Assembly (NCBI GenBank): GCA_041393255.1
Contig: JAWKKM010000025.1
Coordinates: 6,850 to 70,849, forward strand
Reading direction: 5' to 3'
Source: Bacteroidales bacterium
Lineage (GTDB): Bacteria > Bacteroidota > Bacteroidia > Bacteroidales > JAADJA01
Length of the DNA stretch: 64,000 nt
Shown here: positions 29,166 to 46,686 of the stretch, piece after piece
Position numbering within the stretch: the first letter of the stretch is position 1
Layout of the letters: each line of letters opens with the position of its first letter
Position numbers and translations under genes: made by a program
Notes under the pieces: generated by a model
What the model saw: only the letters and a program-made list of their open reading frames with translations
What the model was told of the DNA's origin: nothing
Database searches by the model: none

Positions 29166-29248
29166 AATATTATCAATACAGGGTCAAATAATAAAACTTC
29201 TTTTATAGATGCTATACAGGAATCTTTCAATATTGGAATTTTAAGTAT

Positions 29249-29381: not shown

Positions 29382-29447
29382 AGTATCGGAATTTGGAATT
29401 TGATCCCCTTTGCAATTAACCCCGTTTTTTGTTCGGAATTTCTAATA

Positions 29448-29602: not shown

Positions 29603-30703
29603 ATGAAGAGGAATATTTTAATTTTAAGTATAGTAGCAGGGGCAATAATAATTGTATTTTCCTGCTCCAAGGAAATGTCAAACAATTTTGATACCGGCAC
29701 AAGCAAAAACAACCAATTGACCGAATATGAAATCCAGGTAAACAAGAGCATAAAAGATTTCAAACAGAAGATGGCTTATTGCCGCGAAAACCCCCACCTG
29801 AAAAGCGGGGAAACCATACCCGCCGATTCAGCCGTATGGCTATTGGAGGCAACCATCAATTTCTCCCATGCGTTCCCCAATGAGTACAGCTAAATGAATT
29901 TGAAACCGACAGCCTGACCTTAACAGTTGCCCGCAATGCAGATGGCAGTGTGGACATCAATGAGTTGACAACAAAATACGATGAAATGAAACAGGCTGTG
30001 GCCGATGTTTACCACAGTTCAGGGTTTGAGGGAAAAGGGCTGGCAGTAGTTGACCTTTCAGAAACTTCCCAATCCCCTGATGAAATTACCATTACTATTC
30101 AAACGGTTACCGGGGACAAAGGCAATGAAACACCTTCACCCACCTTAGGGGTAAATGGCCCGTTTATACAAGGAGATGATTGGTGGTATGGCGAATTGTT
30201 AGGTCATTGTGACCCCCATACGCCAAGCAGTACTGATGCTGCAATAAAACTATATACCGCAATGAATACTTATTATCTGAACAAAATGCAGGATTGTATT
30301 TTGTAAGCCCAGTTTCATTTTTTCGAAAAGGGGGTGATGATAATGTAAGAAGAGTAGGTGATCCTGATCCGTTAGATAATAATCAAGATTATTATCTCTA
30401 TAGTATTATTGAAGGAGATGAAAATATAAATTTTGATGTAGATATGCTATGTCTTGAATGGACCGAAATGAATATCCATTTCAACCTGATGAAATACTAT
30501 ATCTATTATCGGATCTATGGTGTTATTCTTCCTGCTAATTATAAACCGTTTGAACTAACTACTAGACTGGGTTTTTTTATGAAGGTTTTGAACCTAACGG
30601 TACTCATTATTACCATAGTTTCACATTTCGATTCGGTATCCCTATTGGGTATGGTGAAGGTGAAGGACCAGGAGGAAATTTGTTGAAACCTTCCTTTTCT
30701 TAG
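29603..30703 (+). pseudogene. cassette A gene 1: lipoprotein of unknown function (paralog of 36821-37885), at least 3 frameshifts
   Basis: The lipobox is IIIVFSCSKE. Fragments 29603-29893, 29950-30306 and 30294-30686 align colinearly with the intact 354-aa paralog (..FPNEY..EF.TDSLTL...DGSVD..EL...YD.MK..VA..). The last shift is at the T-run near 30571-30577, and the stop is 30701-30703. Confidence 0.7.
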
Positions 30704-30803
30704 GATAATTTCAATGAAGCCTGAAGCTAATTGGACAATTATTTTCTGACTTCAGGCTTACATTAAGAAAATATAGATCAAATTATTAAAAATTATACTC
30801 CTT

Positions 30804-32285
30804 ATGAAAATCATACAAATATTTATATTCTTTCACCTTGTATTGATCAGTAGTTTTTGTTGTGGACAATACTCATTTGAATATAAAAAGGTTGGAAGTA
30901 ATAATGAAGGTTTATTTTACACATTTGAAAACTCTTCAAGTAATTATATTTCCGTTGGAGGAGGAAACAGTCAATGGGGTGTTGAGGACCCAACTTCAGC
31001 CTTAATTGTCAGAAATTGGAAGCAGGAAATGTAATAAATGAAGTTTATCAAACCAAACCGGATACAAGTTTTTCTTACTGGTACGGCTTTGAAAAAGAAA
31101 ATGGAAATTATTTCATTGTCGGTACGCTTTCCGATTCTGTATCTTATTATGATGAAAATGTTATCTACGTCTGTGAATTGACAAATTCTTTCAATCTGGT
31201 TTGGGAAAAATTTCATTTGTTCCCTTCCCCTTACAGAGATTGCAAGATCATTCACCATCTGATATTGCCGGACAATACCGTATTGATTGAAGGGAAAGCA
31301 GATTCTTCGCAATACAGTTTTAACGATCTTTTATTCACTGTTTTATTAGATCAGGATGGCAGCCTACTCGATTTCAATTTCTATGAGCACTGGAAAGAAT
31401 ATGGTGTTTACAGTGATATGATTTTTAACCAGGATACTACTGCAATTCAGTTTTTCGGGTCGTTTGCGTATTTATCTATAGGCATTGTTGCCACTTATTT
31501 TGAGATGGATTTAGACCTAAACATTATTAATAGTAGCATAAAATCAGAATTGCCAAACGGAGATTATATTAACTCCCCTTTTTCTATTGCATGGTTACCT
31601 TCTGGCAACCTGATTTCGTCTGATAGATGGGTCGATTATGGCGTTGGGGATTTAGGCTTGAAAATGACATTGATGGATGAAGAATTGAATGTTCTTCAAA
31701 CCCATACCATTGAATACGGTGGATTTTGTTATACACCAGTTTACGATGGCCTGGGATATGTTGACCCCGATAATATATGGGTCACAACATTCAGGGGAGC
31801 ATCTACAAGCTGGCCGGGAATTGAATTGCTGCATTTGCACATTTTTGATTCCAACCTCAACCTGAAAGGGGTGAAAGAATACGGGGATACAAGGTACTGG
31901 TTATGGAACCAAGTGGTAACTTCAGACGGCGGGTGCCTTGTTACAGGAATGATCCCCGATTGCGAAGGCTGTGATAACCACGATGGCTATATATTAAAGG
32001 TTATGCCGAAAGATGTTATTACAAAAATACCTGAAATTTCAGATAGCCTGCAAAATAATATTTCGGTTTATCCAAATCCTTTCAATGAAAGTATCACAAT
32101 TAAATGCGGGTATTCTAGGCTTTGACTTTTACATGTTTGATTTTACAGGCCAGCTTGTTTTAGAGTACAGTAATCAGTTTAACAATTGCAATATCAATAC
32201 AATGGATGTAATAAATGGCCTGTATTTCTATAAAATTATTAAGGATGGCAAAACCATTCAAACAAGTAAATTATTGAAAAATTAA
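30804..32285 (+). pseudogene. cassette A gene 2: secreted beta-rich protein with a T9SS CTD (paralog of 37913-39392), 2 frameshifts
   Basis: Fragments are 30804-31034, 31016-32125 and 32013-32285. Shared motifs with the paralog are KENGNYF(I/L)(V/I)G, WLP(S/D)GN, DPDNIWV and DG(G/S)C(L/I)(V/I)TGM(I/V)P. The CTD reads VYPNPFNESITIK...GLYFYKIIKDGKTIQTSKLLKN. Confidence 0.7.
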
Positions 32286-32297
32286 AAAAATAAAACA

Positions 32298-34085
32298 ATG
32301 AAACGAATAATAATATTGACAAGTTTATGCATAAGCTTAACAAGTTTTGTTAAATCGCAAAATTGCACACAGTGCGACAACTCTGGAAATCCTCCGGGCA
32401 CCTATGCCAGTGAAATAGGGCAAAACACTACAGCCGATGGTGATTGGTCATTTGCCGGCGGTTATTCAAGTCAATCATCAGGGGTTTTATCTTTTGCGTT
32501 TGGGGCAAATTGTAATTCAGATGGACCTTACTCTGTTACGCTTGGTCATTCAATTGAAGCTTATGGTCTACAATCAATGGTAATTGGAACCGGTGCCGGA
32601 AATGAAGAATCTGAATTATTAAAAAATTACAATTCACAATCTTTAATGATTGGGTTTGGTTCGGAAAAACCGTCATTATATGTTGGCCCCTCCTCACCTG
32701 GCCACACTGGATCCATCGGCATCGGCGACATAACCAACCCCCAGGCCAAGCTCCACATCAAAGCCGATAATGGCGAGCAGGCAGCCCTGTTCATCGAGCC
32801 TTACACTTTTGGTGGTACATACGATGCCGAACTTTGGATGGGCACCTCCGCTTACGGCCTCAGAGCCGCCTTTGGCAAATTGTACTTCAACACAGGCGGA
32901 CATTACATCTTCAACTCAGCGGATGCCAATGTAGGAATCGGGGTATTAGCCCCTGTTGAAAAACTCGAAGTCAACGGCAATATAAATATATCTAAAGGAA
33001 ACGCCCTGCTAACTGATCGGGTTCAGGGTACCGGTCAAAAAGGTTTAAACCTTGCCGGTCCATCCGGGATTGGTATTTATGTTGCCTACAATGGAAAAGT
33101 AGGAATTGGATTGACTAACCCATCTAACGAACTGGAAGTTAACGGCAAAATTAAAACTTCATCAATTCAGATTTCAACAGGCTACGGAAACGGTAAGCTT
33201 TTACAATCAGATGCTATGGGTAATGCCTTATGGTCAGATCCTGCATGGACGATAAGCGGCAGTAATGTATATAGAACAGTTGGAAATGTGGGTATTGGAA
33301 CCCCGGCAACTTCAAACAGGCTTGAAGTAGCAGGAACCGTAAATGCAACTAACTTCGTGGGTGATGGTTCAGGATTAACAAATATTTCAGGTGATAACCT
33401 GGGAAACCATGTAGCAACCCAAAATATTCAGATGAGTGGCAGATGGTTGTCAGGCGATGGTGGCGATGAAGGGATATATGTTAAGAATGATGGAAGTGTG
33501 GGGATTGGGTTATCCCCATCTTGCAATCTGGATGTTTCACAAACTTTTAAATGTGGTGAAATCCTCGGAAATAATTCGATATCTTCAGATTATTTTCAAA
33601 TTGCAGGAAGTACTAATACAGATGCCGCCAGTATTTTATTCGGTTGTGGTTCACAATATTCTGATTTAAAACTTGTATCAAATGGTATTGGAGGAATAGC
33701 TTTTTATACTAAAGATGCAGGGGTTACTTATCAAAGGATGACAATAAATAATAATTCTGTATTTGTGGGAACATCAGTTAATCAGGGTACTTTAACCGTA
33801 TATGGTAAAATTGATGCCGAAGAAATCGAAGTTCACGATATAATTTGGCAAGATCAAGTTTTTAAAGAGGACTATAATCTGAAAAGCATTTATGATCTTG
33901 AAAAGTATATAAAAGAATTCGGTCACTTACCAGATATACCCTCTGAATCTGAAATAGATGAGAATGGTGCAAACTTAGGTGACATTCAGGCTATGCTACT
34001 TCGAAAGATAGAAGAACTAACCCTGTATGTAATAGAGCTAAAACATGAAAATGAAAGGATTAAAAATTCCATTAATAAGAATTAG
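32298..34085 (+). CDS. cassette A gene 3: YadA-head-like / tail-fibre-like repeat protein with a C-terminal coiled-coil domain and no T9SS CTD
   Basis: 595 aa with a signal peptide. SxAxG-type head repeats are present (SFAGGYSSQSSGVLSFAFGANCNS). Fibre-type repeats include VGIGVLAPVEKLEVNGNI, VGIGLTNPSNELEVNGKI and VGIGTPATSNRLEVAGTV. The C-terminus reads DYNLKSIYDLEKYIKEFGHLPDIPSESEIDENGANLGDIQAMLLRKIEELTLYVIELKHEN. I recall that domain from Bacteroidota proteins annotated as tail fiber domain-containing. Confidence 0.7.
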   Translation: MKRIIILTSLCISLTSFVKSQNCTQCDNSGNPPGTYASEIGQNTTADGDWSFAGGYSSQSSGVLSFAFGANCNSDGPYSVTLGHSIEAYGLQSMVIGTGAGNEESELLKNYNSQSLMIGFGSEKPSLYVGPSSPGHTGSIGIGDITNPQAKLHIKADNGEQAALFIEPYTFGGTYDAELWMGTSAYGLRAAFGKLYFNTGGHYIFNSADANVGIGVLAPVEKLEVNGNINISKGNALLTDRVQGTGQKGLNLAGPSGIGIYVAYNGKVGIGLTNPSNELEVNGKIKTSSIQISTGYGNGKLLQSDAMGNALWSDPAWTISGSNVYRTVGNVGIGTPATSNRLEVAGTVNATNFVGDGSGLTNISGDNLGNHVATQNIQMSGRWLSGDGGDEGIYVKNDGSVGIGLSPSCNLDVSQTFKCGEILGNNSISSDYFQIAGSTNTDAASILFGCGSQYSDLKLVSNGIGGIAFYTKDAGVTYQRMTINNNSVFVGTSVNQGTLTVYGKIDAEEIEVHDIIWQDQVFKEDYNLKSIYDLEKYIKEFGHLPDIPSESEIDENGANLGDIQAMLLRKIEELTLYVIELKHENERIKNSINKN

Positions 34086-34087
34086 CT

Positions 34088-35515
34088 ATGAAAACAAAAC
34101 TTTCCTTATACATAATGTTACTATTTCCAATTTTACATCTGTATTGTCAGCCCCCTCAGGTTATATGGATACTTCCATCGTCGGGATCTCCAATTCCATT
34201 TGTTTATTCAGGTGGTGATGAATTTAATGGAGAAAGCCTTGACTTAGATAAATGGGATACACATGGAGGGCTTCATAATAGAAGGTGTAATTATGAAGTA
34301 CAGTATTACACAGATGAGAATATTGAGGTTTCAGATGGGAGCTTAAAACTAATTGCTAAACATGAAGATATTTTTGGTAAACCAATAGAATATGAGCCAG
34401 AGGATTATATTATTGGTGACTGTGGCGAACCAAATACTGCCCGGACCTGGCATTATACTTCTGGCAATATTTCCTACAAGAGGCCAATAAAATGGGAACT
34501 AATGGATTTTAGATGTAGGTTGCCAAATGAAGGACAAGGGCTTTGGGCTGCATTTTGGCAACATGGAGGAGTGCCGCCTGAGGAAATTGACTATATTGAG
34601 GCTAAAGGAGAAAGTCCGGAAGAAATACATGTTGCTATTCATTATCCAGATGGTTCATTGGATGGAGATTGGTGGGATTTAGGTTTTGACCTAACAAATG
34701 AATTGCGAGACTATTTATTTTTATGGAAACCTGGTATGGTAATTGCAAAATGTGAAAATATTCATGTTTGTTCGTATGATTTAACACCTGAATTGACAAA
34801 AGCAACACGTCCGATTATAAACCTTGCAATAGCTGGTAATGGTGATGTTCCCTTTTCGCCTGGCCCCAATGATGACACTGATTTTCCTGCTGTATTTGAA
34901 GTTGATCATATTCGATTTTATTCATTACTTGAAGAGGGCTCAATAATTGAAATCTGCAATTATTCCCAGGATCCTGAAGATATGACTTCATTATCTGGAG
35001 ATCAAATTACTTTGGGCGGGGATAATAATTGTCATTTTGAAATAAAGGAAAACGAGTTTTTAAGTGTAATTGCCTCAGATAACATATTGCTAAAAAAAGG
35101 GTTTCATGTTCATAGTGGAGGTAATTTTTCGGCACATATTGTGAACCTATATGATGACAATACTAAATCAGATAGCAGTTTGTTTTCAAAACATAAGACA
35201 GAACAATATTCTGCAAAATCAAATGATCAGGAAATATCGAATAACGACAAAAATGTTGTACAATCAATTGACCAATATAATTCTATTAAGATTTATCCGA
35301 ATCCTTCTCAGGGTGAAATCAATATTGAACTGTCAAAAGGGATAGAAAACATTATTTCAATTTCTTTATATAACAATAATGGTGAAGAAGTATTTGTTAA
35401 AAGAGAAATATTGTTATTCAATACAATATATATATCACATTTACCCTCAGGCTTCTATTTACTCAAAATCAAAACTTCTGACAAAGAATTAATTAACAAA
35501 ATAGTATTGAAATGA
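34088..35515 (+). CDS. glycoside hydrolase family 16 enzyme with a T9SS CTD
   Basis: 475 aa. The GH16 catalytic motif is EIDYIE (ExDxxE), with GLWAAFW upstream and an N-terminal EFNGESLDLDKWDTH. The CTD reads IKIYPNPSQGEINIEL...GFYLLKIKTSDKELINKIVLK. Confidence 0.8.
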   Translation: MKTKLSLYIMLLFPILHLYCQPPQVIWILPSSGSPIPFVYSGGDEFNGESLDLDKWDTHGGLHNRRCNYEVQYYTDENIEVSDGSLKLIAKHEDIFGKPIEYEPEDYIIGDCGEPNTARTWHYTSGNISYKRPIKWELMDFRCRLPNEGQGLWAAFWQHGGVPPEEIDYIEAKGESPEEIHVAIHYPDGSLDGDWWDLGFDLTNELRDYLFLWKPGMVIAKCENIHVCSYDLTPELTKATRPIINLAIAGNGDVPFSPGPNDDTDFPAVFEVDHIRFYSLLEEGSIIEICNYSQDPEDMTSLSGDQITLGGDNNCHFEIKENEFLSVIASDNILLKKGFHVHSGGNFSAHIVNLYDDNTKSDSSLFSKHKTEQYSAKSNDQEISNNDKNVVQSIDQYNSIKIYPNPSQGEINIELSKGIENIISISLYNNNGEEVFVKREILLFNTIYISHLPSGFYLLKIKTSDKELINKIVLK

Positions 35516-36069
35516 GGTGCGATATCAAAGTATTCATCATATGTGTAGTTTTATTAATTATGTTTAATAAAACTCTCCCTGCACAGAAAACAAAAAACAC
35601 AGGCTATTTCAATAATACTGATATTTCCTGGATCAAGGGTGTCGGGTCTGTCAAAAGATATACCATTTTTGTAACTAATGACGAATCCAATTGGGCAATA
35701 GTTACAGTAAACGGAATTAAACACAAAAGCTCCGTTTTTGGTATTGGAGCGGGGTATGAACAATGGGCTAACTCCTATACCATCCCTGCATTTTTAAGGT
35801 ATCAGTTATTTATTAAAGATATCAAACCTTCAATATTTGAATACATTGATGCTGGATATGCTTTCGGTTCTGCAAAAAAAGACCCTGAAGAAAAGGGCCG
35901 GTTTATTTTTAGCATTGGTTTGGGTACCAATATCAAAATTGATAAAGGTACTCATATTTCCCTTGCCTTTTTCTACAAACTGCAACATTTACTGGTTGAA
36001 AGTTACAATGGGGATTATACTACAAATTACAATTTCATTGGTTTGAAAGTTGGTGTTGCTTTCTACTAA
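35512..36069 (+). CDS. small outer-membrane beta-barrel-like protein
   Basis: 185 aa. It has a signal peptide, alternating beta-strand patterns and a C-terminal ...GLKVGVAFY. Its start overlaps the GH16 stop (ATGA at 35512-35515), suggesting translational coupling. Confidence 0.45.
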   Translation: MRCDIKVFIICVVLLIMFNKTLPAQKTKNTGYFNNTDISWIKGVGSVKRYTIFVTNDESNWAIVTVNGIKHKSSVFGIGAGYEQWANSYTIPAFLRYQLFIKDIKPSIFEYIDAGYAFGSAKKDPEEKGRFIFSIGLGTNIKIDKGTHISLAFFYKLQHLLVESYNGDYTTNYNFIGLKVGVAFY

Positions 36070-36100
36070 AACCAACCAGCTCCCACATTAAAGCTTTACA

Positions 36101-36550
36101 TCTCGGCGGGGTCTCCCCGCTCCGCCGTTTGAACTATCAATCTCAGATTGTATTTCCATCAATAAAATTCAGTCATATCAACCACCCAAGCATTCACCAC
36201 CCTCGGCAGAGTCTCCTGACTCCGCCGCTTGAAGCAGCAATCTCCGATTACAACTTAACCACCCTTGCTCTCCGAAGCTTTAGCGAAGGAGTGCCCCATC
36301 AAATCAATCGCCTTCTTCAAATACCGGTTCTCCTCCCGCAGCCTCTCAACCTCCGCTGTCAGTTCATCAATACGTTGGTCCTTGCCCTCCGTAGCTTCAG
36401 CGCAGGAGGGCCCTGCTTCTTTTTGGTGTTGTCACTAAAAAGCAGATTTTCCGATCCCTGATCTTTTTCAACCGATAACTTTTTTTTTCTTGCTTTTTGA
36501 TAAAACATATTTATCTTAGCCACACCAAAACAAAACAAAAACCGAATGGC
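36101..36550. repeat. R-block copy B (expanded), at the junction of cassette A and cassette B
   Basis: Two hairpin copies are present (CGGCGGGG-TCT-CCCCGCTCCG and GGCAGAGTC-TCCT-GACTCCGCC). On the minus strand there is a short coiled-coil-like relic DQRIDELTAEVERLREENRYLKKAIDLM (36296-36380). The GCCCTCC-N14-GGAGGGC segment follows and is near-identical to 29012-29165. Confidence 0.8.
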
Positions 36551-36666
36551 CGTGATTTTCAGTATAGGGTCAGTAAGTAAAATATTTTCCGCCAATGGAA
36601 ACATTGTTTTTTTCCCTTTTGGAATTTCGAAACTTAAATATTATAATTTCATCCTGTCCCTAAATA

Positions 36667-36820
36667 CCCCCCCCCTCAATAAGTTACAAAACCGGCAACT
36701 TTTTAAAGTGCAATTCCTATGTGCACCGCTTGTATTTATTTTGAAAATTTCAAAAAGCTAACAGCAAATGCCAACCAATCCAAGCAAAAAAAAAAAAGTA
36801 AAATTTAAAATACAAAATCA
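36667..36820 (+). promoter_or_regulatory. conserved leader/promoter block of cassette B, starting with a C9 homopolymer
   Basis: C9 at 36667-36675, then sequence paralogous to 29458-29602. An A12 run lies at about 36787-36798. Confidence 0.5.
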
Positions 36821-37885
36821 ATGAAGAGGAATATATTAATTTTAAGTATTGTAGCAGCGGCACTAATAATTGTGTTTTCCTGCTCCAAGGAATCATCAAA
36901 TAATGTTGATGCCGACAAAAACATCCAATTGACCGGATATGAAATCCTGGTAAACAAGAGCATAAAGGATTTCAAGCAGAAAATGGAATATGTACGCGCT
37001 AACCCGTACCTGAAAAGCGGCGAAAGTGTGCCAGCCGATTCTGTACTTTGGTACCTCGAGGCAACCATCAACTATTCCCATGGGTTTCCCAATGAGTATT
37101 ATCAAGAGTTTCAAACGGATTCCCTCACCCTTTCCATTGATAAAAATGAAGATGGAAGCGTGGATATGGCAGAACTTACCCAGGAGTATGACCTGATGAA
37201 ATCCGAAGTAGCTACGGCTTACAATGCCTCCACCTTTACTAATAAAGGGCTTACATTGATTGATTTGGAGGTAACTTCTGAAACAGATGAAGAAATTGTA
37301 ATTTCCGCAACAAGTATTACCGGAAAAATTAACCCAAACCCCGATACCACAAAGTGGTATAATGTAGGTAGTTGGGAATATGGTGAAAATGGCGGATATT
37401 GTAATAGTTCATTAGGTGACGGGGACGCCTCTGAGCAATTTCTTCACAGGATTTATTGGCTTATTGCCTCCAATGGTAAAACAAATACCTTCTTTGATGA
37501 AATACAAGTAGTAGATGTAAAAGGAGGCGACCCCGATTTCCTTGTTAACCCTTCCCTACCGGCTGATAACCACCTCGACTATTATCTCTATTATTCCATT
37601 GATGGAACACCCATATACTGGGATGAGGATATGCTGTGCATTCCAAATGCCGACATGAATGCTTACAATAATTCTATCTACACATTACTTTACGATTACT
37701 TGCCAAACGACTACCTTCCTGCAAATTATGGTGGCCAGAATTATTATATTATTTCTTGTTTGCAATTTTTTGATGGGAAAGGCCCTGCTTTTCCAGCAGG
37801 GTACGAGTATTATCATAAAGGAAAATTCGAATATGGGTATGATATTGAATATTCAGAAGGGAATTACCCAACCGAGATTGAATAG
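36821..37885 (+). CDS. cassette B gene 1: lipoprotein of unknown function (intact paralog)
   Basis: 354 aa. The lipobox is LIIVFSCSKE. I recognise no domain. It is Tyr/Asp/Asn-rich, with a C-terminus GYEYYHKGKFEYGYDIEYSEGNYPTEIE. Confidence 0.7.
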   Translation: MKRNILILSIVAAALIIVFSCSKESSNNVDADKNIQLTGYEILVNKSIKDFKQKMEYVRANPYLKSGESVPADSVLWYLEATINYSHGFPNEYYQEFQTDSLTLSIDKNEDGSVDMAELTQEYDLMKSEVATAYNASTFTNKGLTLIDLEVTSETDEEIVISATSITGKINPNPDTTKWYNVGSWEYGENGGYCNSSLGDGDASEQFLHRIYWLIASNGKTNTFFDEIQVVDVKGGDPDFLVNPSLPADNHLDYYLYYSIDGTPIYWDEDMLCIPNADMNAYNNSIYTLLYDYLPNDYLPANYGGQNYYIISCLQFFDGKGPAFPAGYEYYHKGKFEYGYDIEYSEGNYPTEIE

Positions 37886-37912
37886 TATATGGAACTCATT
37901 TAATCCTGAAAT

Positions 37913-39392
37913 ATGAAAAATCTACTATTTATTGTACTATTTATACCTTTGGTTTCTTTATCCCAGGTGGGATTTGAATATATACTGGAAGATACCATAG
38001 ATTCCAAGTGTTATTCAAGTTTTATGGATGACCAGGGCTATATTGTTTCTCTTGGAACGATTTATAATCCAACTTCTGATTTGTATGATGCATTGATCCT
38101 CAAATACCAGGATTCCTCAGATGTATTAGAGAAAAAATTTAATCCTGGTGGGATGAATTGCGGGTTTTGGTTTGGAAGCCAAAAAGAAAATGGAAACTAC
38201 TTTCTAATAGGTTTGACCTGGGAGCCATATTTTAGCTTGTATTTTGCAGAAGTGGACCAGGAATTGGAATTAGTACAGGAAACCTATTATCAGGTTCAAT
38301 TCGATTACCATTGGATAAATGTACAAGAATCCTTTGAGGATGAAAATAATACAATAATACTAACTGGCGCATTGTATAATGAAATTTATCAGCAATTAGG
38401 CATGTTCGTTACCAGGGTCAATAAAAATGGCGAAGTATTGAAAACAACAATAATAACAGATCTTTATTGTAACTCTGGCATAGAATTTATCAAAAAACTT
38501 GATGGTTCCGGATATTATTTGATAGGCACATCTCAGGAGGATATTATTATATTTGATAACGATCTTGATGTTGTTGATTACCAGTTTTATCCTGTCGGCA
38601 GTGTATTTAATACACCACTTGCATTGCGATGGCTTCCCGATGGAAATATTATGGTCGCGAATATGATAAATCAGGGAGTACCCGGTGCGTATTATGATAT
38701 CCGATTAAGGATAGTGGATGAAGGTTTTAACACAATAAAAGACACTACATTCTTCGATGAGGGTAAAAACTGGCCGGCTGATCTTAGCAGTCTCGACTAT
38801 ATTGACCCGGATAATATCTGGGTGGTTTCCCAGGAGAAAAGCTGGAAATCTTCTAAAGATGAATGGGAGCATGCAAGGGTATATATTGTTGATTCGGAAT
38901 TGAATGTGAAGGGTGCAAAATACTTTGCCGGTGAGCTTGAGGTTTATTTGTTTTCGACAAAAGTTTTGGAAGATGGGAGTTGCATTATCACCGGGATGGT
39001 GCCTAAAGCTGGAAAACCTACTGACTATAATGCATATATCCGAAAAATAATGCTCGATGATGTTTTAACCGCTGCCGAGGAAACTGTAGCAGAAGATGAC
39101 AGCGATGTCCTCCTCTACCCTGTACCTTTCGAAAAGAGGCTAAATATCGAAACTTACCGGAAAAATTTATCCCTTTCGATCTTCAACGAAAATGGGATTT
39201 GCATTATTGAAAAACAAGCTTTGCAAATTCCATATACTTACTAGAGATAATACGAATGATTTAATAAGCGGGGTTTACCTCTATTCTGTATATGACAAGA
39301 ACAAAGTCATAGAAACAGGAAAGATTGTTAAAAAAATAGATTTTATTTACCCGGAATATACATTTATTAACCTTAGAAAATTTATCAAATGA
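37913..39392 (+). pseudogene. cassette B gene 2: secreted beta-rich protein with a T9SS CTD, one frameshift inside the CTD
   Basis: ORF 37913-39244 (443 aa) and ORF 39192-39392 overlap out of frame. The CTD text is LLYPVPFEKRLNIE... then ...GVYLYSVYDKNKVIETGKIVKKI. The stop overlaps the start of gene 3 (ATGA at 39389-39392). Confidence 0.7.
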
Positions 39393-41236
39393 AAAATTTT
39401 ATAGCAGTTTTAGCAGTATTAGTCGCATTATCAGTTAATGCACAGGTAAATTATTACAATACCACCACAAATGGCACATACTCAAGTGCAATCGGTTTAA
39501 ATAATGATGCCGACGGGGCTAATGCCTTTGTAGGAGGCGGAAATTCAAAAGCACATGGCCAAAACTCATTCGCTTTTGGTAATTCGGCAGAGGCTACAGC
39601 AACTGATGCTATTTCATTGGGATTATCTGCCAAAAGTAACGGAGTAGCTTCATTTACAATTGGAAGTTATCTCACAGCTCAAGGGACTAACTCTTTCATA
39701 ATTGGAAAAGGAATTACTTCAATCTATCGTTTAAATAATACGATTCCGAATTCCATTATGTTTGGAATGAATGCAACAAAACCAACTTTATTTATAAGCC
39801 CGACTTACGGTCTTGATAAAACTGGAAAGGTAGCCATTGGGAACATGACCAACCCACAAGCCAAACTCCACATCAAAGCCGACGATGGTGAGCAGGCGGC
39901 CCTGTTCATTGAGCCTTACACTTTTGGTGGCACATACGATGCCGAACTTTGGATGGGCACCTCCGATTATGGGCTAAGGGCCGCTTATGGCAATTTGTAT
40001 TTCAATACCGATGGGCATTACATCTTCAATTCAGCGGATGCCAATATGGGCATTGGGGTATTACTCCCCACCGAAAAACTCGAAGTCAATGGAAAAGTAA
40101 AAAGTACCGGATTCCAGCTTATAAACGGACAACAAGGAGAAGGGAAATACTTAAGCAGCGATTCGGATGGTAATGCCAGTTGGGAGGAATTTAATATTAA
40201 CAGTTTCGAATGCCTTGCATCAGGTGAATATGCCAATACGTTGGGAAAATGGGATACAGCATCAGGGGATTTTTCTTTTGCCGGAGGAGTAAATACAAAA
40301 TCCGAAGGACATGTTTCTTTTGCCTATGGTGCCTGGGCCCAAACTTCAGGATCCCATAGTTTTGCTTTGGGTGTAGGAACTAAGGCGACAAATACCAGTT
40401 CATTTGCCATAGGAAGCAGATGTGCTGCAACTGCCTCCAATTCTATTGTCATTGGCAGGGGGTTAAGCGCTGATGAAATGTTGATAAATAACATCGATAA
40501 TTCACTGATGATTGGATTTAGTTCTGATAAACCTACTTTGCTTGTTACTTCGGCTTTTGGCAAAGGTTCCACCGGAAAGGTTGGTATCGGTGATATCCCT
40601 GAGCCACAGGCAAAACTTCATATAAAAGGAGGCCAGAACGAACAGGCCACGTTGTTTATTGAACCCTACGTTTTCGGTGGAACATACTATGCCGCGCTCA
40701 GAATGGGAACTGAGGATTACGGCCTTGTAACAACCTACGGACGAATGTCATTTAAAACCGGTGGAAACTACATCTTTGATTCGCCCGGTGCCTTTGTCGG
40801 AATAGGGACTAACTACCCAATTGCAAAACTTCATGTTACAGGAAACATTTTTATTGATGATCAAAACTCAGGCATTATTCTCAAATCGCCCGATGGGCAA
40901 TGTTGGAAAGGGATGATATCAAATGAAGGGGCATTAGCTTTTGAGCCTATTGATTGCGACCTCACAACCAATACCTCTCCAGAACCAGAATCGGCAAACC
41001 CACATGTAGTTATATTTCCAAATCCGACAAAAGACAATATCCGTATCCGCAAATCAGATCAATCTGTATTGTTTGCAAGCATAATTGATATGAACGGAAT
41101 TTTGCTTCAAACCATAGAACTGTTTGAAAATGAAACCGAAATATCCTTAAGTGGATTTTCTGCCGGATGCTACTTCATAAGGATAACCAATGAAAATAAT
41201 CAGTTAATAGTCAACGAAAAAGTAATCAAAAATTAA
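39389..41236 (+). CDS. cassette B gene 3: YadA-head-like / tail-fibre-like repeat protein with an internal duplication and a T9SS CTD
   Basis: 615 aa. There are two copies of a module made of head repeats, (K)PTL(F/L).., NPQAKLHIK..EQA.LFIEPY.FGGTY.A.L.MGT.DYGL and ..IF.S. The CTD reads VIFPNPTKDNIRIRKSD...CYFIRITNENNQLIVNEKVIKN. Confidence 0.75.
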   Translation: MKNFIAVLAVLVALSVNAQVNYYNTTTNGTYSSAIGLNNDADGANAFVGGGNSKAHGQNSFAFGNSAEATATDAISLGLSAKSNGVASFTIGSYLTAQGTNSFIIGKGITSIYRLNNTIPNSIMFGMNATKPTLFISPTYGLDKTGKVAIGNMTNPQAKLHIKADDGEQAALFIEPYTFGGTYDAELWMGTSDYGLRAAYGNLYFNTDGHYIFNSADANMGIGVLLPTEKLEVNGKVKSTGFQLINGQQGEGKYLSSDSDGNASWEEFNINSFECLASGEYANTLGKWDTASGDFSFAGGVNTKSEGHVSFAYGAWAQTSGSHSFALGVGTKATNTSSFAIGSRCAATASNSIVIGRGLSADEMLINNIDNSLMIGFSSDKPTLLVTSAFGKGSTGKVGIGDIPEPQAKLHIKGGQNEQATLFIEPYVFGGTYYAALRMGTEDYGLVTTYGRMSFKTGGNYIFDSPGAFVGIGTNYPIAKLHVTGNIFIDDQNSGIILKSPDGQCWKGMISNEGALAFEPIDCDLTTNTSPEPESANPHVVIFPNPTKDNIRIRKSDQSVLFASIIDMNGILLQTIELFENETEISLSGFSAGCYFIRITNENNQLIVNEKVIKN

Positions 41237-41258
41237 AAAATGAATAGTACCTTATGCG

Positions 41259-41428
41259 GGGGCTACCAATTCCAAAGGTTGAAATGACAAAACCTTTCCG
41301 AAAAAGAAGTATTATAAAACGGGATCAATGTGGGCGAAATGAATGCTTTGCTGCTACAAAAAATTGAGGAACTCACACTTCATATTATCGAATTGGAAAA
41401 ACGACTAAGTGTTGTCGAAAATAATTAA
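41259..41428 (+). pseudogene. relic of the tail-fibre C-terminal coiled-coil domain, orphaned downstream of cassette B gene 3
   Basis: It reads GYQFQRLK*QNLSEKEVL*NGINVGEMNALLLQKIEELTLHIIELEKRLSVVENN* (stop 41426-41428). This is colinear with the A3 C-terminus ..DYNLKS...IPSESEIDENGANLGDIQAMLLRKIEELTLYVIELKHEN.., but has internal stops and a deletion. Confidence 0.65.
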
Positions 41429-41435
41429 CATACAA

Positions 41436-41957
41436 ATGAAAATGGGTGGCAATTTAACGCTAATCGTAATAATAACACTTATTTGGTTAAATAGCTTTCA
41501 ATCAGTAGGTCAGTCCGATACTACTAAAACACGTAAAATCAAATTTGATTGGGAGCTTGCCCCTCCGGGTGCCGGTTTTAATTTTTCACTCAACAGTAAT
41601 AATGCGAATTCTTTTGGAATCGGAATAAGTATATTAAACCCAACCATAGCTATTGCCCCAGTTGAAGTTGCCCGAGATGATGTGTTATATAGTATTGATC
41701 TTATATACTGGAAGTTTTTTTATAGAAATCGAATCAATAAACGAATTGCTATGGAGTATTCTTTAAAACATGGCTTTTCAAATTTAGTTTACGGACCAAA
41801 TACAGACTTATTTACTCAATTGCTTGGTTTTCAATTTGCCATCAGTTTAGGAGTGCGAAAAGTTAAATATAAACCTTCCATTTCAGTTGTACGTTCATTA
41901 GAAATTCCAACAACCTTTGTTTATGTAATGCCATTGGTTTTTAATTTTAATTTATAA
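41436..41957 (+). CDS. small secreted/outer-membrane-like protein of unknown function
   Basis: The ORF track starts at GTG 41409, inside the relic; ATG 41436 (MKMGGNLTLIVIITLIWLNSF) is preferred. The protein is hydrophobic at the N-terminus and beta-rich, ending ..MPLVFNFNL. Confidence 0.45.
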   Translation: MKMGGNLTLIVIITLIWLNSFQSVGQSDTTKTRKIKFDWELAPPGAGFNFSLNSNNANSFGIGISILNPTIAIAPVEVARDDVLYSIDLIYWKFFYRNRINKRIAMEYSLKHGFSNLVYGPNTDLFTQLLGFQFAISLGVRKVKYKPSISVVRSLEIPTTFVYVMPLVFNFNL

Positions 41958-41967
41958 ATACGAAAAA

Positions 41968-42366
41968 ATGAAATCAATAATAACAACCTTACTTTTATTT
42001 GTTTTTAGCTTTGCTAAAACTCAACCGATAATACCTGAGATAATTAGTATCTATCCTCCTTACTTATGTCCGTTACTTTGTAACTGGAGTAATTGCCAGC
42101 CGCATCTACCATTTGGTGCTTTGAGCCAACAAAATGTTGACAGGGACATTAAATTTAAAGCAGCATTTGGCAAAGATTGCCTATACAAGGACAGCAAAAC
42201 CGGATGGAATAAACTTGAAGTGATAAGGAGAGCATTTTATCAACAAGAAAGATCGCTCCGTCTTGGTTGGCGTACAAATCAAACAACGGAAGAATTTGAA
42301 ATTGGTTTGTATGCCCATATTGATGGGAAAATAGAATCCGTTAATATGGATTTTCAACCCACCTAA
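41968..42366 (+). CDS. small secreted protein of unknown function, possibly nonsense-interrupted
   Basis: 132 aa with a signal peptide (MKSIITTLLLFVFSFAKTQ). After the TAA at 42364-42366 the same frame stays open for another 56 codons (GLTKSYWYYLRMAWHGMYVRAGDNSYCIKRKIFEPGVTYITALVGIYFG*). Confidence 0.45.
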   Translation: MKSIITTLLLFVFSFAKTQPIIPEIISIYPPYLCPLLCNWSNCQPHLPFGALSQQNVDRDIKFKAAFGKDCLYKDSKTGWNKLEVIRRAFYQQERSLRLGWRTNQTTEEFEIGLYAHIDGKIESVNMDFQPT

Positions 42367-42744
42367 GGCCTAACGAAATCTTATTGGTATTATTTAAGAA
42401 TGGCCTGGCATGGTATGTATGTCCGTGCAGGCGATAATTCTTATTGTATCAAAAGAAAGATTTTTGAACCCGGTGTAACTTACATTACAGCTTTAGTGGG
42501 TATTTATTTTGGATAACCCCATGACCACGCTTGACATATCAAAAAATCAAAAGATAATACACTTAAGTAATGAAGGAGTATTTCTCGATTTGTGTCTGGA
42601 CATTGCCTTTTCCACCATCAGAACTTAACTAACAAACTTCCGGCATCTTTTGATGGTTTTGTAATTTGTGAATAATATATCATTTATTAATACTGTACTT
42701 TATTTGGCCCCAAATGGCGCAAGGCCCCCCTGTGCCCACCCAAA

Positions 42745-42860
42745 ACTCAGCATAGTCTCACGGCTACACCGCTTGTAGGAACCAGCAATCTCCGAATACT
42801 ACCTATTCACACTTGCCCTCCAGAAGCTTCAGCGCAGGAGGGCCCATCAATAGCCAATTG
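42745..42860. repeat. R-block copy C (truncated), at the 3' border of cassette B
   Basis: CTCAGCATAGTCTCACGGCTACACCGCTTGTAGGAACCAGCAATCTCCGAATACTACC...GCCCTCCAGAAGCTTCAGCGCAGGAGGGCC is colinear with 28937-29030 and 36201-36412. Confidence 0.75.
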
Positions 42861-43049
42861 CTCCCCGTCATTGCGAGCGCAGCGAAGCAATCTGATACAA
42901 AGTTTCAACTCCCCGTCATTGCGAGCACAGCAAAGCAATCTGTATTAAGCTACAACTCCCCGTCATTGCGAGCGCAGCGAAGCAATCTGTACAAAGTTTC
43001 AACTCCTCGTCATTGCGAGCACAGCGAAGCAATCTGTATAAAGTTGCAA
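42861..43049. repeat. tandem array of four 47-48-bp REP units
   Basis: The units are 42861-42908, 42909-42955, 42956-43002 and 43003-43049. Each reads CTCCCCGTCATTGCGAGC(G/A)CAGC(G/A)AAGCAATCTG + TA.AAAGTT.CAA. The same core also forms the MITE-like element at 29249-29381. Confidence 0.85.
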
Positions 43050-43166
43050 CTCAAGCAACCGCGATGCCGTTGGCTGCGTCACACCCAAAAGCCTTGCCAG
43101 CCTCGCCTTCGTCATCAACGGAGGCAGCTGTTCACCAATCAATTTCCCAATATGAACCCGCTCCAT
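42999..43166 (-). CDS. 55-codon HTH (XRE-like) mini-ORF, probably a truncated DNA-binding gene whose 3' end is replaced by REP sequence
   Basis: My manual reverse-complement translation is MERVHIGKLIGEQLPPLMTKARLARLLGVTQPTASRLLELQLYTDCFAVLAMTRS*. TKARLARLLGVTQPTASRLLE fits a helix-turn-helix. The last ~15 codons are encoded by the REP unit. 43050-43166 is about 56% GC by hand count, in an AT-rich context. It falls below the ORF-track length cut-off. Confidence 0.4.
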   Translation of the reverse strand: MERVHIGKLIGEQLPPLMTKARLARLLGVTQPTASRLLELQLYTDCFAVLAMTRS

Positions 43167-43185
43167 AATATTTTAGTTTCTTATA

Positions 43186-43458
43186 AAACTAACAAATTAT
43201 GTTAGTTTATTAAGCAGTTACTTTAATTTACTAAACACTTACTTCAACCTTTTAAACATTATCTTTAATTTATTAAACCTCGACTTTATTTATCTAACTA
43301 CATACTTCTATTTCTTAAGCACGGGCTTTAATTTCTTATACCTGTATTTTAATTATCTAAACACAGACGTTAATTATTTAAGCCTGATCTTTAATTTGGT
43401 TAACCTCAATAGCTATTTATTAAGCCTCGAAAGTAATTTGTTAAACGGGTTGCACAGA
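43186..43458. repeat. 13 head-to-tail, exactly phased 21-bp units, consensus TTnTTAARC-N5-CTTTAAT, non-coding
   Basis: The TAA cores lie at 43190, 43211, 43232, 43253, 43274, 43295, 43316, 43337, 43358, 43379, 43401, 43421 and 43442, so the spacing is 21 bp (20-22 at one pair). Example units are ttattaagcagttactttaat, ttcttaagcacgggctttaat and tatttaagcctgatctttaat. Stop codons occur in all six frames. Confidence 0.85.
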
Positions 43459-43527
43459 CAACCGGATGGGTGTTAGAAATACGTCCCGCAAAAAATGATT
43501 TACAGTATTACCTATACCTGCTCACCT

Positions 43528-44451
43528 TCAAACTCGAAACCGCAGCATCAATATCAATGAAACCTGAGATTTGGCAGATTCAGAAAAATTAGGGGTTTGG
43601 TACAAGCCCTTGTCAATTTTATTAAAGCCATCAATATCACGTCCCGAAAGAATAGTGGAAGTACGCAATTCACAGGCCGATGCAAAGGGGACTTTGATTT
43701 CAATGGCACTGGCGCCGGCATCAATCGTTACCCTTGTATGATTGTATAAATCGCCCAGCTTAAGTTCAACTTTTGATGCACCTCCGTCCAACTCAATTTT
43801 TTCAACTTTAAACGGACTAAGGTCCATTTCAAGATTGGCAGCCCCCACATCCACATTGAGTTTCCATACCGGCCCCGAATTCAGGTATAGCCAGGCATCG
43901 TTGTGAATTTTACCACGGTTGTAAGTTAGGTTTTTTTGGTTGATATCAATGGTGGCCGTAGAATTGCCCTGGGAAGTCAATACTTCAAAAGGGCCTGCAT
44001 TGCCTTCACTCTTAAACTCAAACAGCTCTGTGGTTTCATTCTCAACAATAAAATTGCCCACTGCTGCATTAAGGTTCAATCGGGCAGTGGAAATGTTCTC
44101 ATCTGGAGGTTCAGAAAAGTTTTGATCGTCCCATGAATATTCCTCATGATCTTCATCATCGTCATAATCCCGGTCATATTTATAGGAAAAATTATCAGGC
44201 CACCACCAGTTGTTTTTACTTCCCGGATGGTTCACCAAAATCAGTACCGCAAAAAATATTGCAACTACCGATAAGGTTAGCTTCATAAACGCTTTAACCG
44301 GCAATAGTGAGATGCCCCAAAAGATAAAAATAAAAGGCCACAGCTTAAATATGGAATGCCAGTTGAAAAAGAAAATATCAAAGTTTCTCAAGGTAAAAAG
44401 TACCCCAAGAGTGAGTAGCAAAACGCCCCAGAAAATTTCACCTTTTTTCAT
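43528..44451 (-). CDS. LiaF-like / toastrack-type membrane protein (cell-envelope stress family)
   Basis: 307 aa. The N-terminal TM region reads GVLLLTLGVLFTLRNFDIFFF..WPFIFIFWGISLL. An acidic linker follows. The C-terminal repetitive beta-strands are LNAAVGNFIVE, VDVGAANLEMDL, LDGGASKVELKLG and IDAGASAIEIKV. It lies immediately downstream of a PspC-domain gene. Confidence 0.5.
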   Translation of the reverse strand: MKKGEIFWGVLLLTLGVLFTLRNFDIFFFNWHSIFKLWPFIFIFWGISLLPVKAFMKLTLSVVAIFFAVLILVNHPGSKNNWWWPDNFSYKYDRDYDDDEDHEEYSWDDQNFSEPPDENISTARLNLNAAVGNFIVENETTELFEFKSEGNAGPFEVLTSQGNSTATIDINQKNLTYNRGKIHNDAWLYLNSGPVWKLNVDVGAANLEMDLSPFKVEKIELDGGASKVELKLGDLYNHTRVTIDAGASAIEIKVPFASACELRTSTILSGRDIDGFNKIDKGLYQTPNFSESAKSQVSLILMLRFRV

Positions 44452-44456
44452 TTCTA

Positions 44457-44909
44457 TTAATTATTATATCGGTTGTAGCTTTTGGATATTAAAATCACCC
44501 CGATTACAATTAAAATAACCGGCCACAGATCGCCGAAATCAATTCGGGGAACAAACCTGTCAATTAAAAAAAGAACGCCCAAAGTTATGAGGATTAACCC
44601 ACCCCATAAATTGGAATTATTCTTTTGTTGGTTTTTCTGATGTTCATTACTTTCATCAGGAATTTCAAAATCATTTTTTTCTTCAGCCATAGTATTGGTA
44701 TTTGATTGATTAGTGTATGCAATATTTTCAACCGGTATCGCAATCCACAGGATGATGTAGACCAGCAGGCCACTACCCCCCACAAAAAAATGCAACAGCA
44801 AACAAAACCCTGAAAAGGACAGGCGTCCGCTTTCAGGTAACGCCAAGGCCACCACAAACACCGGCAATAACAGAATTGCGATTACTCGGTATAAACGAGA
44901 TTGTTCCAT
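44457..44909 (-). CDS. PspC-domain membrane protein; the ORF is open but its N-terminal PspC motif is scrambled by compensating indels
   Basis: The frame-A ORF has ..FFVGGSGLLVYIILWIAIP (the end of the PspC domain). The canonical motif SNRNSVIAGVCGGLGV and the segment PVLFRVLFAVAFF are readable only in a second frame, and YLKAD only in a third. All of this falls between about 44770 and 44890. Confidence 0.7.
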   Translation of the reverse strand: MEQSRLYRVIAILLLPVFVVALALPESGRLSFSGFCLLLHFFVGGSGLLVYIILWIAIPVENIAYTNQSNTNTMAEEKNDFEIPDESNEHQKNQQKNNSNLWGGLILITLGVLFLIDRFVPRIDFGDLWPVILIVIGVILISKSYNRYNN

Positions 44910-45323
44910 AATTAGAATTTACAAATATAAATCTTTTTACCAGAAATAACCACCCCAATGCAGAACGTACAAGCCAAAAAACATAAGTTCAATATCTTTT
45001 TCAACGCCCTGTAAGGGATCCCAGATCAAACTTGTTAGGATAAAACCCACAGAGACCCTCCTTCCACTCAGATCAGTCGGACTTTTAAAAATTTGATTCT
45101 CAAAATTAAAGTCTTACTGATTTATGATGACGCAGAATTACCATTCCCGTTACAAAATTCAGAACAATTTTTAATATCATTTGTTAAGACTGTAATAGTA
45201 AAGTTATTTTGACAAATGTCTAAAAAAGCAGGTTTTTACATATAAGGTTAAGAAAATCTAAAATTTGTTTACTATTTTTACCATCATTTTTAACAATATT
45301 CAAATTAATAGTAAATCATTAAC

Positions 45324-46686
45324 ATGACAGGTGAAAGAATTCAAAATGGTGAATGGGCAATTAAATGTTCCCGGAACAACCCATTATCCCATTTATTAAG
45401 GAGACGGAACAGGTCCGGATATTTGGCGATCATCACAAAACGTATTTGATGCCGCCGTAGAAAAAGCGTATAACGGGAAAAGAAAAGTTATTTGGAAAGA
45501 AGTATATGCGGGTGAAAACGCATTCAACAAATACGGTGAGTGGCTTCCTGACGAAACAGTAGAAGCTTTCAAAGAATACCTTGTTGGTATTAAAGGCCCC
45601 CTCACAACCCCTGTGGGAGGAGGTATCCGGTCGCTCAATGTTGCCTTGCGTCAATTGCTCGATCTTTATGTTTGCCTGAGTCTAAGTATGTTCACGGAGT
45701 CCCTTCTCCGTAGTAAAACCCGAAGACGTTGACATTGTTATTTTCAGAGAGAACACCGAAGATATTTATGCCGGAATTGAATGGGCAGAAGGGTCCGAAG
45801 GGGTTAAGAAAATGATTGATTTCATACAGAACGAAATGGGTGTGAATAAAATCCGCTTCCCCGAAACTTCCGGTATTGGGATCAAACCCATTTCAAAAGA
45901 AGGTTCGTCCAGGCTCATCAAAGCAGCCATTGAATATGCACTTGCAGAAGGAAGAAAATCACTGACCCTGGTTCACAAAGGGAACATCATGAAATTTACC
46001 GAAGGAGCCTTCAAAAGTTGGGGTTACGAGCCTGCCGTCAAAGATTTCCGCGGCCAAATCGTTACCCAGCGCGAAAAAGCCGGATTATTGATAACAAAGA
46101 CAACGATCCCGATCTTTCCATCGAAGAAAATGCTAAAATGTTTGAGCCGGGCTATTTCATGATGACCGAAGACCAGCAGAAGGTCATCAGGGAAGAAGTA
46201 GAAGAAGCGATGAAATTGATGCCAACCCATGGTAACGGACAATGGCAAAACAAACTCATGGTCAAAGATGCCATAGCCGACATTACCCTGCAACAAGTAC
46301 TTACCCGTGCCAGCGAATTTGATGTAGTCGCAACCATGAACCTCAACGGGGATTACCCGATGCGCTTGCCGCGCAGGTTGGTGGCATTGGAATTGCACCC
46401 GGAGCCAATATCAACTACATAACCGGCCACGCAATTTTTGAAGCCACCCACGGAACGGCACCCAAATATGCCGGGCTTGACAAAGTGAATCCCGGATCAG
46501 TTATCCTTTCTGGTGCGATGATGTTCAAGTATTTAGGATGGAACGAAGTACACGATTTGATTTGGGAAGGGATTGGTTAAATCCGTTAGCCAGAAAAAAG
46601 TAACCTATGATTTTCATCGTTTGATGAAAGGAGCTCAATTGTTGAAATGCTCCGAATTTGGTAAAGCTATTATTGAGAATATGTAA
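45324..46686 (+). pseudogene. icd: NADP-dependent isocitrate dehydrogenase (homodimeric Icd type), many frameshifts
   Basis: Icd text is readable only by hopping frames: MTGERIQ / MVNGQLNVP.. / [93 protein letters not shown] / ..[21 protein letters not shown].. / ..[22 protein letters not shown] / ..[10 protein letters not shown] / ..[46 protein letters not shown].. (stop 46684-46686). At least 6 frame changes. Confidence 0.85.

Follow-up and report, generated by a model that had tools for sequence, protein, structure and literature searches.

A phased array of 21-bp repeats beside a broken Cro/C1-like gene in a Bacteroidales genomic island: a predicted binding-site array with a counterpart at a second locus

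The 64-kb stretch of Bacteroidales DNA analyzed here (the window) contains an AT-rich array of head-to-tail 21-bp repeats, which lies directly 5' of a small gene on the minus strand whose product is predicted to be a helix-turn-helix (HTH) protein of the Cro/C1 type. The reading that we favor, and to which we would give an even chance of being correct, is that the array represents approximately 12 binding sites for the protein encoded immediately 3' to it. The module in the window is itself, as judged from its sequence, a relic, with the gene cut after codon 40 and the whole situated at the edge of a 14.6-kb insertion. It is best read as a decayed copy of a module that appears to be built like iterons, parC and stbS, but not to be homologous to them. 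Positions in and around the HTH gene are given below relative to its ATG at 43166 (minus strand), and the coordinates of the features are collected in Table 1.

The array keeps a strict 21-bp register over 43188-43460, in which 11-12 good units and one partial unit can be recognized, and the segment 43186-43458 can be written as rows of 21 bp with zero indels. Autocorrelation over this segment reaches 0.57, 0.56 and 0.61 at lags of 21, 42 and 63 bp, respectively, as against a maximum of 0.44 at any lag across 5000 shuffles. Tandem Repeats Finder (TRF) likewise recovered a period of 21 bp, along with a higher-order period of 63 bp, and a sliding periodicity scan of all 64 kb flagged only this array and an adjoining 47-bp repeat. 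The units are only ~57% alike to each other, yet they run for 252 bp without an indel. A first-pass annotation of this DNA had described 13 units in strict 21-bp register. The register is borne out by the rows without indels, by the autocorrelation, which lies well beyond the shuffled background, and by the repeat finder, but the number of good units is only 11-12. The two end units do not conform to the rest, as the promoter-proximal one is a distinct palindrome with 9-bp arms and the distal one is a half unit. One of the TAA cores listed in that annotation, at position 43337, actually reads TAT. A search with its consensus, allowing up to two mismatches, gave six matches, all of them in the array, with 1.3 expected and none of 100 shuffles reaching six. 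As it had also stated, the array fills the gap between a gene for a LiaF-like membrane protein and the ATG at 43166. Its GC content (26%) agrees with the earlier estimate of roughly 25%, and that of the 55-codon open reading frame (ORF) beginning at this ATG is 52% rather than the 56% given there; the window as a whole has 39%.

On the strand of the gene each unit would comprise a single direct-repeat core, GYTTAA-N3-ATTA, and about eight unconstrained bases. The pair of inverted half-sites (TTAARC/CTTTAA) previously proposed for each unit is indeed present in the window copy, but it is not kept in the second array described below, where it is the direct repeat GYTTAA-N3-ATTA that is common. 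The core is orientation-specific: GYTTAA occurs 48 times on the minus strand of the 64 kb, with seven of these copies falling inside the array, and the array has no copy on the plus strand. The longer form GYTTAANNNATTA is confined to the array and has no other occurrence in the window. The palindromic unit closest to the gene is possibly a primary operator that overlaps the promoter. Promoters of Bacteroides and other Bacteroidetes typically have a -7 element with the consensus TAnnTTTG, and a similar box occupies -25 to -18 in all three loci at which this region could be compared (TAGTTTTA in the window and TAATTTTG in the other two). At the opposite end of the array, the partial unit overlaps a small GC hairpin (CCGGTTG-N6-CAACCCG), which may be the terminator of the LiaF-like gene.

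An exhaustive HMMER search over 1.84 billion representative proteins recovered only two relatives of the HTH protein, namely P0121 (MEZ5199711.1), a 92-amino-acid (aa) protein from a Bacteroidales metagenome-assembled genome (MAG) with 69% identity over residues 1-39, and P0122, of 54 aa. A further search added P0123, of 146 aa, and all three are singletons. A word-index search with the 41-aa fragment returned no family member, scans of JGI metagenome contigs and GTDB genomes with an alignment of the close family yielded no further member, and exact-protein look-ups of the LiaF-like protein, the 55-aa ORF and P0121 gave no match. The module is rare, being represented at three or four loci that all belong to uncultured Bacteroidales, and it is unannotated.

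P0123 is encoded on a 1.9-kb Logan contig (L007), in which an AT-rich 21-bp array again lies directly 5' of the gene. TRF assigns this array a period of 21 bp, its autocorrelation is 0.57 at lag 21 and 0.59 at lag 42, and its higher-order period is 42 bp. When the upstream regions of the window gene and the L007 gene are anchored at their ATGs they align with zero indels, and each contains 12 good units from -273 to -22. As in the window, the units of the L007 array are only ~57% alike, and its 252 bp are likewise free of indels. The contig that encodes P0122 (L008) ends 40 bp 5' of the ATG, within what is apparently the last unit. The association of the array with the HTH gene, which the first-pass annotation had proposed from the window alone, is supported by this second 12-unit array in matching register upstream of its own HTH gene, at the only relative recovered with its full context, and the two elements appear to belong together. 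The L007 module adjoins a PIN toxin-antitoxin pair. At the contig end (L007 1-52) the distal end of its array is abutted by a 7-bp repeat, (TTCAAGG)n, of a GC-richer family.

Comparison of the two arrays reveals a sharply position-specific pattern of divergence. Across the 13 motif positions, identity between the window and L007 is 70% for units of the same ordinal and 67% for units of different ordinal. The corresponding values for the eight spacer positions are 29% and 28%, with 24% expected from composition. By way of comparison, the adjacent coding sequence is 81% identical. Orthology between individual units of the window and L007 is undetectable (permutation p = 0.16), and the higher-order periods also differ (63 bp versus 42 bp). 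Hence, the arrays appear to turn over fast while holding the motif, the strict phase and a total of ~12 units. Such a pattern would be expected if selection acts on protein-binding sites arranged in a phased row, and it argues against a neutral minisatellite. The two arrays thus constitute a clean natural experiment, in which motif and phase are kept and spacers randomized beside a gene that is 81% identical.

The 55-codon ORF was earlier suggested to be a truncated HTH gene, and this is confirmed by its alignment to residues 1-40 of P0121 and P0123. The suggestion that a repeat array cuts it also holds, as the homology ends exactly where the 47-bp repeats start, and the codons beyond 40 are read from these repeats. 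Since the homology ends at codon 40 at the 47-bp repeat and resumes for ten residues beyond it, the HTH gene is evidently broken in the window. Over the first 39 codons, whose identity to L007 is the 81% cited above, the differences fall on 13 third, seven first and two second positions, a bias that fits recent purifying selection. The Cro/C1-type fold is assigned through transitive homology and should be regarded as a prediction. The window ORF and P0121 score below the Pfam thresholds (13.7 bits versus 23 for HTH_3, 16 bits versus 27 for HTH_37), and a sequence search of the PDB with the HTH protein gave no match. An AlphaFold2 model of P0121 has helices at 6-13, 20-27, 31-39, 45-54 and 57-66 plus a C-terminal helix, albeit with a mean predicted local distance difference test (pLDDT) score of only 55.

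Searches with tblastn extend the family to a Bacteroidales subfamily with 34-40% identity and a C-terminal coiled coil. Its members L009, L010 and L017, which are linked to the family by BLASTP E-values of 1e-7 to 2e-11 (in a four-protein database) and a tblastn E-value of 5e-5 (in a phage collection), pass the Pfam HTH_3/HTH_26 thresholds. The subfamily is present at 29 GTDB loci in Bacteroides, Phocaeicola, Prevotella and Parabacteroides, and many of these loci represent one widespread mobile element. None of the 29 loci has a 21-bp array upstream of the gene, but sense-strand GTTTAA occurs at fixed spots 5' of it (-134/-127/-120 and -29/-18; 29 loci), and these motifs are probably best regarded as supportive rather than independent evidence. 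In gut Bacteroidales the ~150-aa HTH plus coiled-coil genes lie divergent from an operon that encodes an excisionase-like protein and a primase. Motifs of this kind, including a run of three TGTTTAA, are found at 4088-4223 of L009 and in 26 of the 27 GTDB loci examined (L015-L043).

The genomic setting of the module resembles that of an integrative element. The LiaF-like protein of the window is 100% identical to P0001, from a Bacteroidales MAG. In four loci with LiaF-like proteins 60-82% identical to that of the window (L001, L002, L005 and L011), the next gene after the LiaF-like gene, at a distance of ~160-270 bp, encodes a TonB-dependent receptor and corresponds to window 26387-28717. Because these four relatives join the two genes directly, the window can be seen to carry an insertion between them. 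The insertion displays a hallmark of integrative elements, in that relatives lack it and the terminal part of the target gene is repeated directly on either side of it. The array begins ~50 bp inside the right copy of this repeat. The earlier idea that the locus is the remnant of a mobile element therefore fits its placement within a 14.6-kb insertion bounded by a 26-bp direct repeat. Most genes of the island lack a family assignment; one encodes a GH16 protein, which, like one other island protein, carries a type IX secretion system (T9SS) tail. Scans with Pfam and/or NCBIfam of 13 island ORFs of 96-615 aa, including all 12 of at least 120 aa, recovered no integrase, transposase, recombinase, Rep or Par.

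Table 1. Coordinates and particulars of the features discussed, in the 64-kb window unless stated otherwise (a dot denotes no strand)
Feature	Position	Strand	Particulars
Twelve head-to-tail 21-bp units	43188-43439	-	-273 to -22 from the HTH ATG
Unit consensus of the window array, gene's strand			AAATTAAAGTnnnnGnTTAnn; core common with L007, GYTTAA-N3-ATTA
Unit consensus of the L007 array, gene's strand			TnATTAnTnTnnnGGTTTAAn
Distal 13th unit, partial	43440-43460	-	keeps the GTTTAAC end only
Promoter-proximal unit, perfect palindrome with 9-bp arms	43186-43208	.	AAACTAACA-AATTA-TGTTAGTTT
-7-like promoter box TAGTTTTA	43184-43191	-	at -25 to -18
55-codon ORF	42999-43166	-	codons 1-40 (43047-43166), Cro/C1-like HTH N-terminus of the P0121/P0123 family
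47-bp GC-rich repeat, 4.1 copies	42861-43052	.	took the place of HTH codons ~41-77
HTH-gene remnant GEQLAIDGPS	42837-42866	-	P0123 residues 78-87, after the repeat insertion
Open frame through the array, 99 codons	43177-43473	+	antisense to the HTH gene; judged non-coding
Insertion, ~14.6 kb	28932-43507	.	absent in related genomes
26-bp direct repeat, left copy	28906-28931	.	24/26 identical to the right copy
26-bp direct repeat, right copy	43508-43533	.	last 8 LiaF-like codons and stop, authentic frame
LiaF-like membrane protein gene	43509-44451	-	frameshift near 43560 relative to orthologues
GC-rich two-hairpin element, ~100 bp	42746-42850	+	further direct copies at 28936-29032 and 36196-36302
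Second remnant, P0123-like C-terminal coiled coil	36258-36413	-	63% identity, flanked by repeat hairpins

These observations suggest the following functional model. The small Cro/C1-type protein would bind the GYTTAA-N3-ATTA cores, and since 21 bp corresponds to two helical turns, all the cores would lie on one face of the helix. Proteins on adjacent units could then touch each other, perhaps via the C-terminal helix or coiled coil, and bind cooperatively. Once fully occupied, the array would extend to the palindromic unit and to the -7 box, which lies 18-25 bp 5' of the ATG, and might thereby exert switch-like control over the promoter of the gene itself. Such an arrangement recalls the XRE repressors (Pfam HTH_3), to whose superfamily the protein would belong by transitive homology and which also have sites adjoining their own promoter. 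The position of the distant relatives, divergent from the excisionase-like and primase operon, is again like that of a switch repressor. However, one to three palindromic operators are the rule for classical XRE repressors, whereas the window has twelve phased direct repeats spanning 250 bp.

Several points weigh against the proposal of an autoregulatory binding-site array. Twelve operators far exceed what autoregulation usually needs. In the window the protein is truncated and the array is left without a cognate protein, and yet the array appears intact. The two known arrays share one ancestor, so that their pairing with the HTH gene amounts to a single evolutionary observation, and the matching number of units in the two loci could be due to chance. 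The scores of the window ORF and P0121 under the Pfam thresholds and the poor AlphaFold model (pLDDT 55) count in the same direction, as does the possibility that the conservation of GTTTAA in the distant subfamily reflects recent spread of the element.

The strongest rival, which we nevertheless consider unlikely, is a maintenance role for the array in a plasmid-like or integrative element that has since decayed, with autoregulation as a side function. In this case the array might be centromere-like, either motor-less as in StbA/stbS or pSK1 Par or with a motor encoded elsewhere, or it might serve iteron copy control or as an origin. Phased tandem repeats directly 5' of the gene for their small binder also characterize parC, tubC, stbS and iteron origins, and a number as high as twelve sites would be more in line with a partition complex than with an operator. 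The position at the edge of a direct-repeat-flanked insertion, the PIN toxin-antitoxin pair beside the L007 module, which is a typical stability neighbor, and the residence of the distant subfamily on primase-carrying mobile elements are all in keeping with such a role. On the other hand, no ParA, ParM, TubZ or Rep gene adjoins the module in the window or L007, and the HTH protein does not detectably resemble ParR, TubR, StbA, Par or Rep. The window is chromosomal, and tblastn and blastn searches against 72,556 plasmids found nothing similar. A 53-bp match to an Enterococcus plasmid in these searches was rejected as a chance AT-rich match with no array. A pattern scan and a protein scan of IMG/VR were both empty. 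Because ParA, ParM, TubZ, Rep and integrase are all missing, a role in partition or replication stays an analogy, and centromere or iteron function can be suggested by analogy only.

The comparison with individual systems points the same way. Iteron origins have direct repeats of 21-22 bp in AT-rich DNA 5' of a Rep gene, and an inverted repeat at the promoter for autorepression. Our array scan recovered a textbook instance, L044, in which four iterons of 21 bp precede a Rep_3 gene at ~75-160 bp. The twelve units of the window resemble the iterons of Rep_3 origins in being direct repeats within the 17-22 bp range at approximately two-turn phasing, but they are degenerate, as opposed to 3-7 near-identical iterons. 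Their neighbor encodes a Cro/C1-type HTH protein of ~92 aa, which is too small for the WH1-WH2 initiator of 300 aa. No match to a Rep family was found in the island or in L007, and the literature on Bacteroides, searched for iterons or repeats of 21 bp, yielded no relevant account.

StbA of R388 is a small HTH protein that binds cooperatively to two sets of five direct repeats in its own operon promoter, and it both represses its own synthesis and serves as the centromere-binding protein, with no nucleoside triphosphatase (NTPase) encoded by the plasmid (bioRxiv 10.1101/2022.04.29.490116). Its stbDR units are 9 bp (TTGCATCAT) with 11-bp phasing, and stbS lies beside oriT on a conjugative plasmid (bioRxiv 10.1101/2022.04.29.490116). 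The StbA HTH is PadR-like, without detectable similarity to the window family, unit length and sequence differ, and the Pfam and NCBIfam results for the HTH protein include no match to an StbA family. In ParR/parC of R1 and pSK41 and in TubR/tubC, a small protein coats tandem repeats into a superhelix and represses the promoter (PMC5016525). These share with the module the presence of tandem repeats at one locus 5' of the operon, but their binders are of the ribbon-helix-helix (ParR) or winged HTH (TubR) type, their units are of 10-20 bp, and the ParM or TubZ motor is adjacent. No ParM or other NTPase adjoins the module, and neither TubR/TubZ genes nor matches to these families were found, so that the features of type II and of type III partition are both lacking. 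Given an unrelated protein, another unit geometry and the lack of the partner genes, the module is placed outside these classes, as a phased repeat array coupled to a gene for a predicted small DNA-binder that resembles the iteron, StbA/stbS, ParR/parC and TubR/tubC systems in architecture without being a member of any of them.

A bolder extension, somewhat less likely than a maintenance site, is that the ~90-aa Cro/C1-like protein polymerizes along ~250 bp of phased sites to form a nucleoprotein 'handle' of small mobile elements, as a previously undescribed module. Such a handle might serve segregation without a motor or anchoring, or it might work as an immunity switch of the all-or-none kind, and units would turn over rapidly while selection held their number and helical phase. 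If the protein does coat the array, the phased-repeat nucleoprotein complexes known from plasmid iterons and centromeres would gain a new family of proteins as well as a new geometry of repeats (twelve 21-bp direct repeats). If this is true, their source would be the Bacteroidales, in which such systems have hardly been described. For the present genome the practical meaning would be small, given a relic copy with a broken gene in an island of secreted proteins.

That the array is a functionless AT-rich minisatellite, found upstream of both genes through shared ancestry, appears improbable. Non-coding 21-bp satellites are admittedly common in metagenome contigs. A degenerate three-unit DNA pattern had at least 120 matches there, and most of those listed are unrelated AT-rich 21-bp satellites. 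Among the matches listed none had a P0121-type gene beside it, and one was the classical Rep_3 iteron origin of L044. The lack of unit-to-unit orthology is also as expected of a minisatellite. However, divergence that spares the motif and not the spacer, strict phase despite ~43% divergence between units, the like number and register of units in both loci and the recurrence of the core motif 5' of distant homologues are not. One of the non-coding arrays, at 9297-9499 of L101, has the 21-bp unit GGGTTAAATATGATAAATTTG and lies at the contig end, 200 bp 3' of an ORF (8680-9099, 139 aa). The product of this ORF has a ribbon-helix-helix-like N-terminus (KSFRFDDTLKDLIKEL) followed by a coiled coil, with no match in Pfam. 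This may be another pair of an array and a small binder.

Slightly more doubtful still is the view that the repeats assist, as accessory sites, in the site-specific recombination of the 14.6-kb island, with the HTH protein as a directionality factor of the Cox/Apl type. P2 Cox and 186 Apl are ~90-aa proteins that bind rows of direct repeats, and the array is only ~50 bp from the right 26-bp repeat, a duplication of the target gene's 3' end of the kind that integrative elements produce. Against this, the island has no integrase or recombinase, its opposite end is without matching repeats, L007 offers no attachment-site (att) context, and the fixed register relative to the promoter points to transcriptional control.

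A coding origin of the repeats, as heptad-repeat sequence on the plus strand or a recent pseudogene of it, is highly improbable. The first-pass annotation had dismissed it on the ground that every frame has stops; this premise is false, as one frame through the array is open for 99 codons and reads as xLNxxFN heptads (FLIKLTNYVSLLSSYFNLLNTYFN...), where 2.7 stops would be expected and the column-permutation chance of none is ~0.02. Its conclusion nonetheless stands on other evidence. The frame has no ATG, GTG or TTG before codon 75 (43399), and it runs antisense through the HTH promoter. The equivalent L007 frame has 3-4 stops, and it is a different L007 frame that is most open. Variation is block-like, with an eight-base spacer, and third codon positions are as conserved as first and second ones. 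Pfam gives no match to the frame. The coding reading is thus largely refuted, and the open frame can be seen as following from a repeat period that is a multiple of three. An effect of DNA or RNA shape alone, through a curved upstream element or a structured or repeat-derived RNA, is the least probable of all, for although the array is AT-rich with AAATT tracts at two-turn phasing upstream of a promoter, its curvature is unremarkable in a wedge model with approximate parameters (end-to-end/contour ratio 0.885 for the window array and 0.888 for that of L007, versus 0.87 +/- 0.075 in shuffles; rank 418 of 1275 windows), RNA folding gives z-scores of -1.4 and +0.1, and Rfam 15 has no match at E <= 1 in 42000-45500.

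In a fifth and more distant relative (L013 7929-11177), a pyruvate-formate-lyase-like gene and an activase gene lie between the LiaF-like and TonB-receptor genes, indicating that this junction has been altered more than once. In the window the C-terminus typical of LiaF-like orthologues (IDIDAAVSSLKVSRYR) lies in another frame that ends with the TAA at 43509-43511, whereas the annotated ORF ends in ...LILMLRFRV and a stop at 43528. This frameshift could be a real mutation or an assembly error of the MAG. The 47-bp repeat family (core GTCATTGCGAGCRCAGCGAAGCAATC) is present as four tandem copies in the HTH gene and as one inverted copy at 29328-29356 near the left island end, where there is also a 142-bp imperfect palindrome (29248-29382).

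The ~100-bp two-hairpin element, which also occurs 3' of the HTH gene in L007, has the stems GCGTAGTC-N4-GACTACGC and GCCCTCC-N14-GGAGGGC, and the hairpin GGGCCCTCC...GGAGGGC is translated within P0123 as GPSxAEAxEGK. The second remnant in the island encodes ...DQRIDELTAEVERLREENRYLKKAIDLMG..., and residues 99-133 of P0123 have a weak NCBIfam match to IS3-family transposases (E 0.12). The source of this remnant may therefore be the leucine zipper of an IS3 OrfA and not the HTH gene. In a Parabacteroides MAG, five 22-bp repeats with an internal palindrome (AAAAATGATTGCAATGATTTGG; L041 1497-1604) lie ~1 kb 3' of an HTH gene of the distant subfamily, and may serve the element there as iterons or operators. 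Finally, the island contains an internal duplication of 87-88% identity (29001-29186 versus 36382-36572, and 29444-29500 versus 36663-36718), which splits it into two cassette-like halves, each with the ~100-bp element at its start, and the module in the window is, from its appearance, one relic among several in the island.

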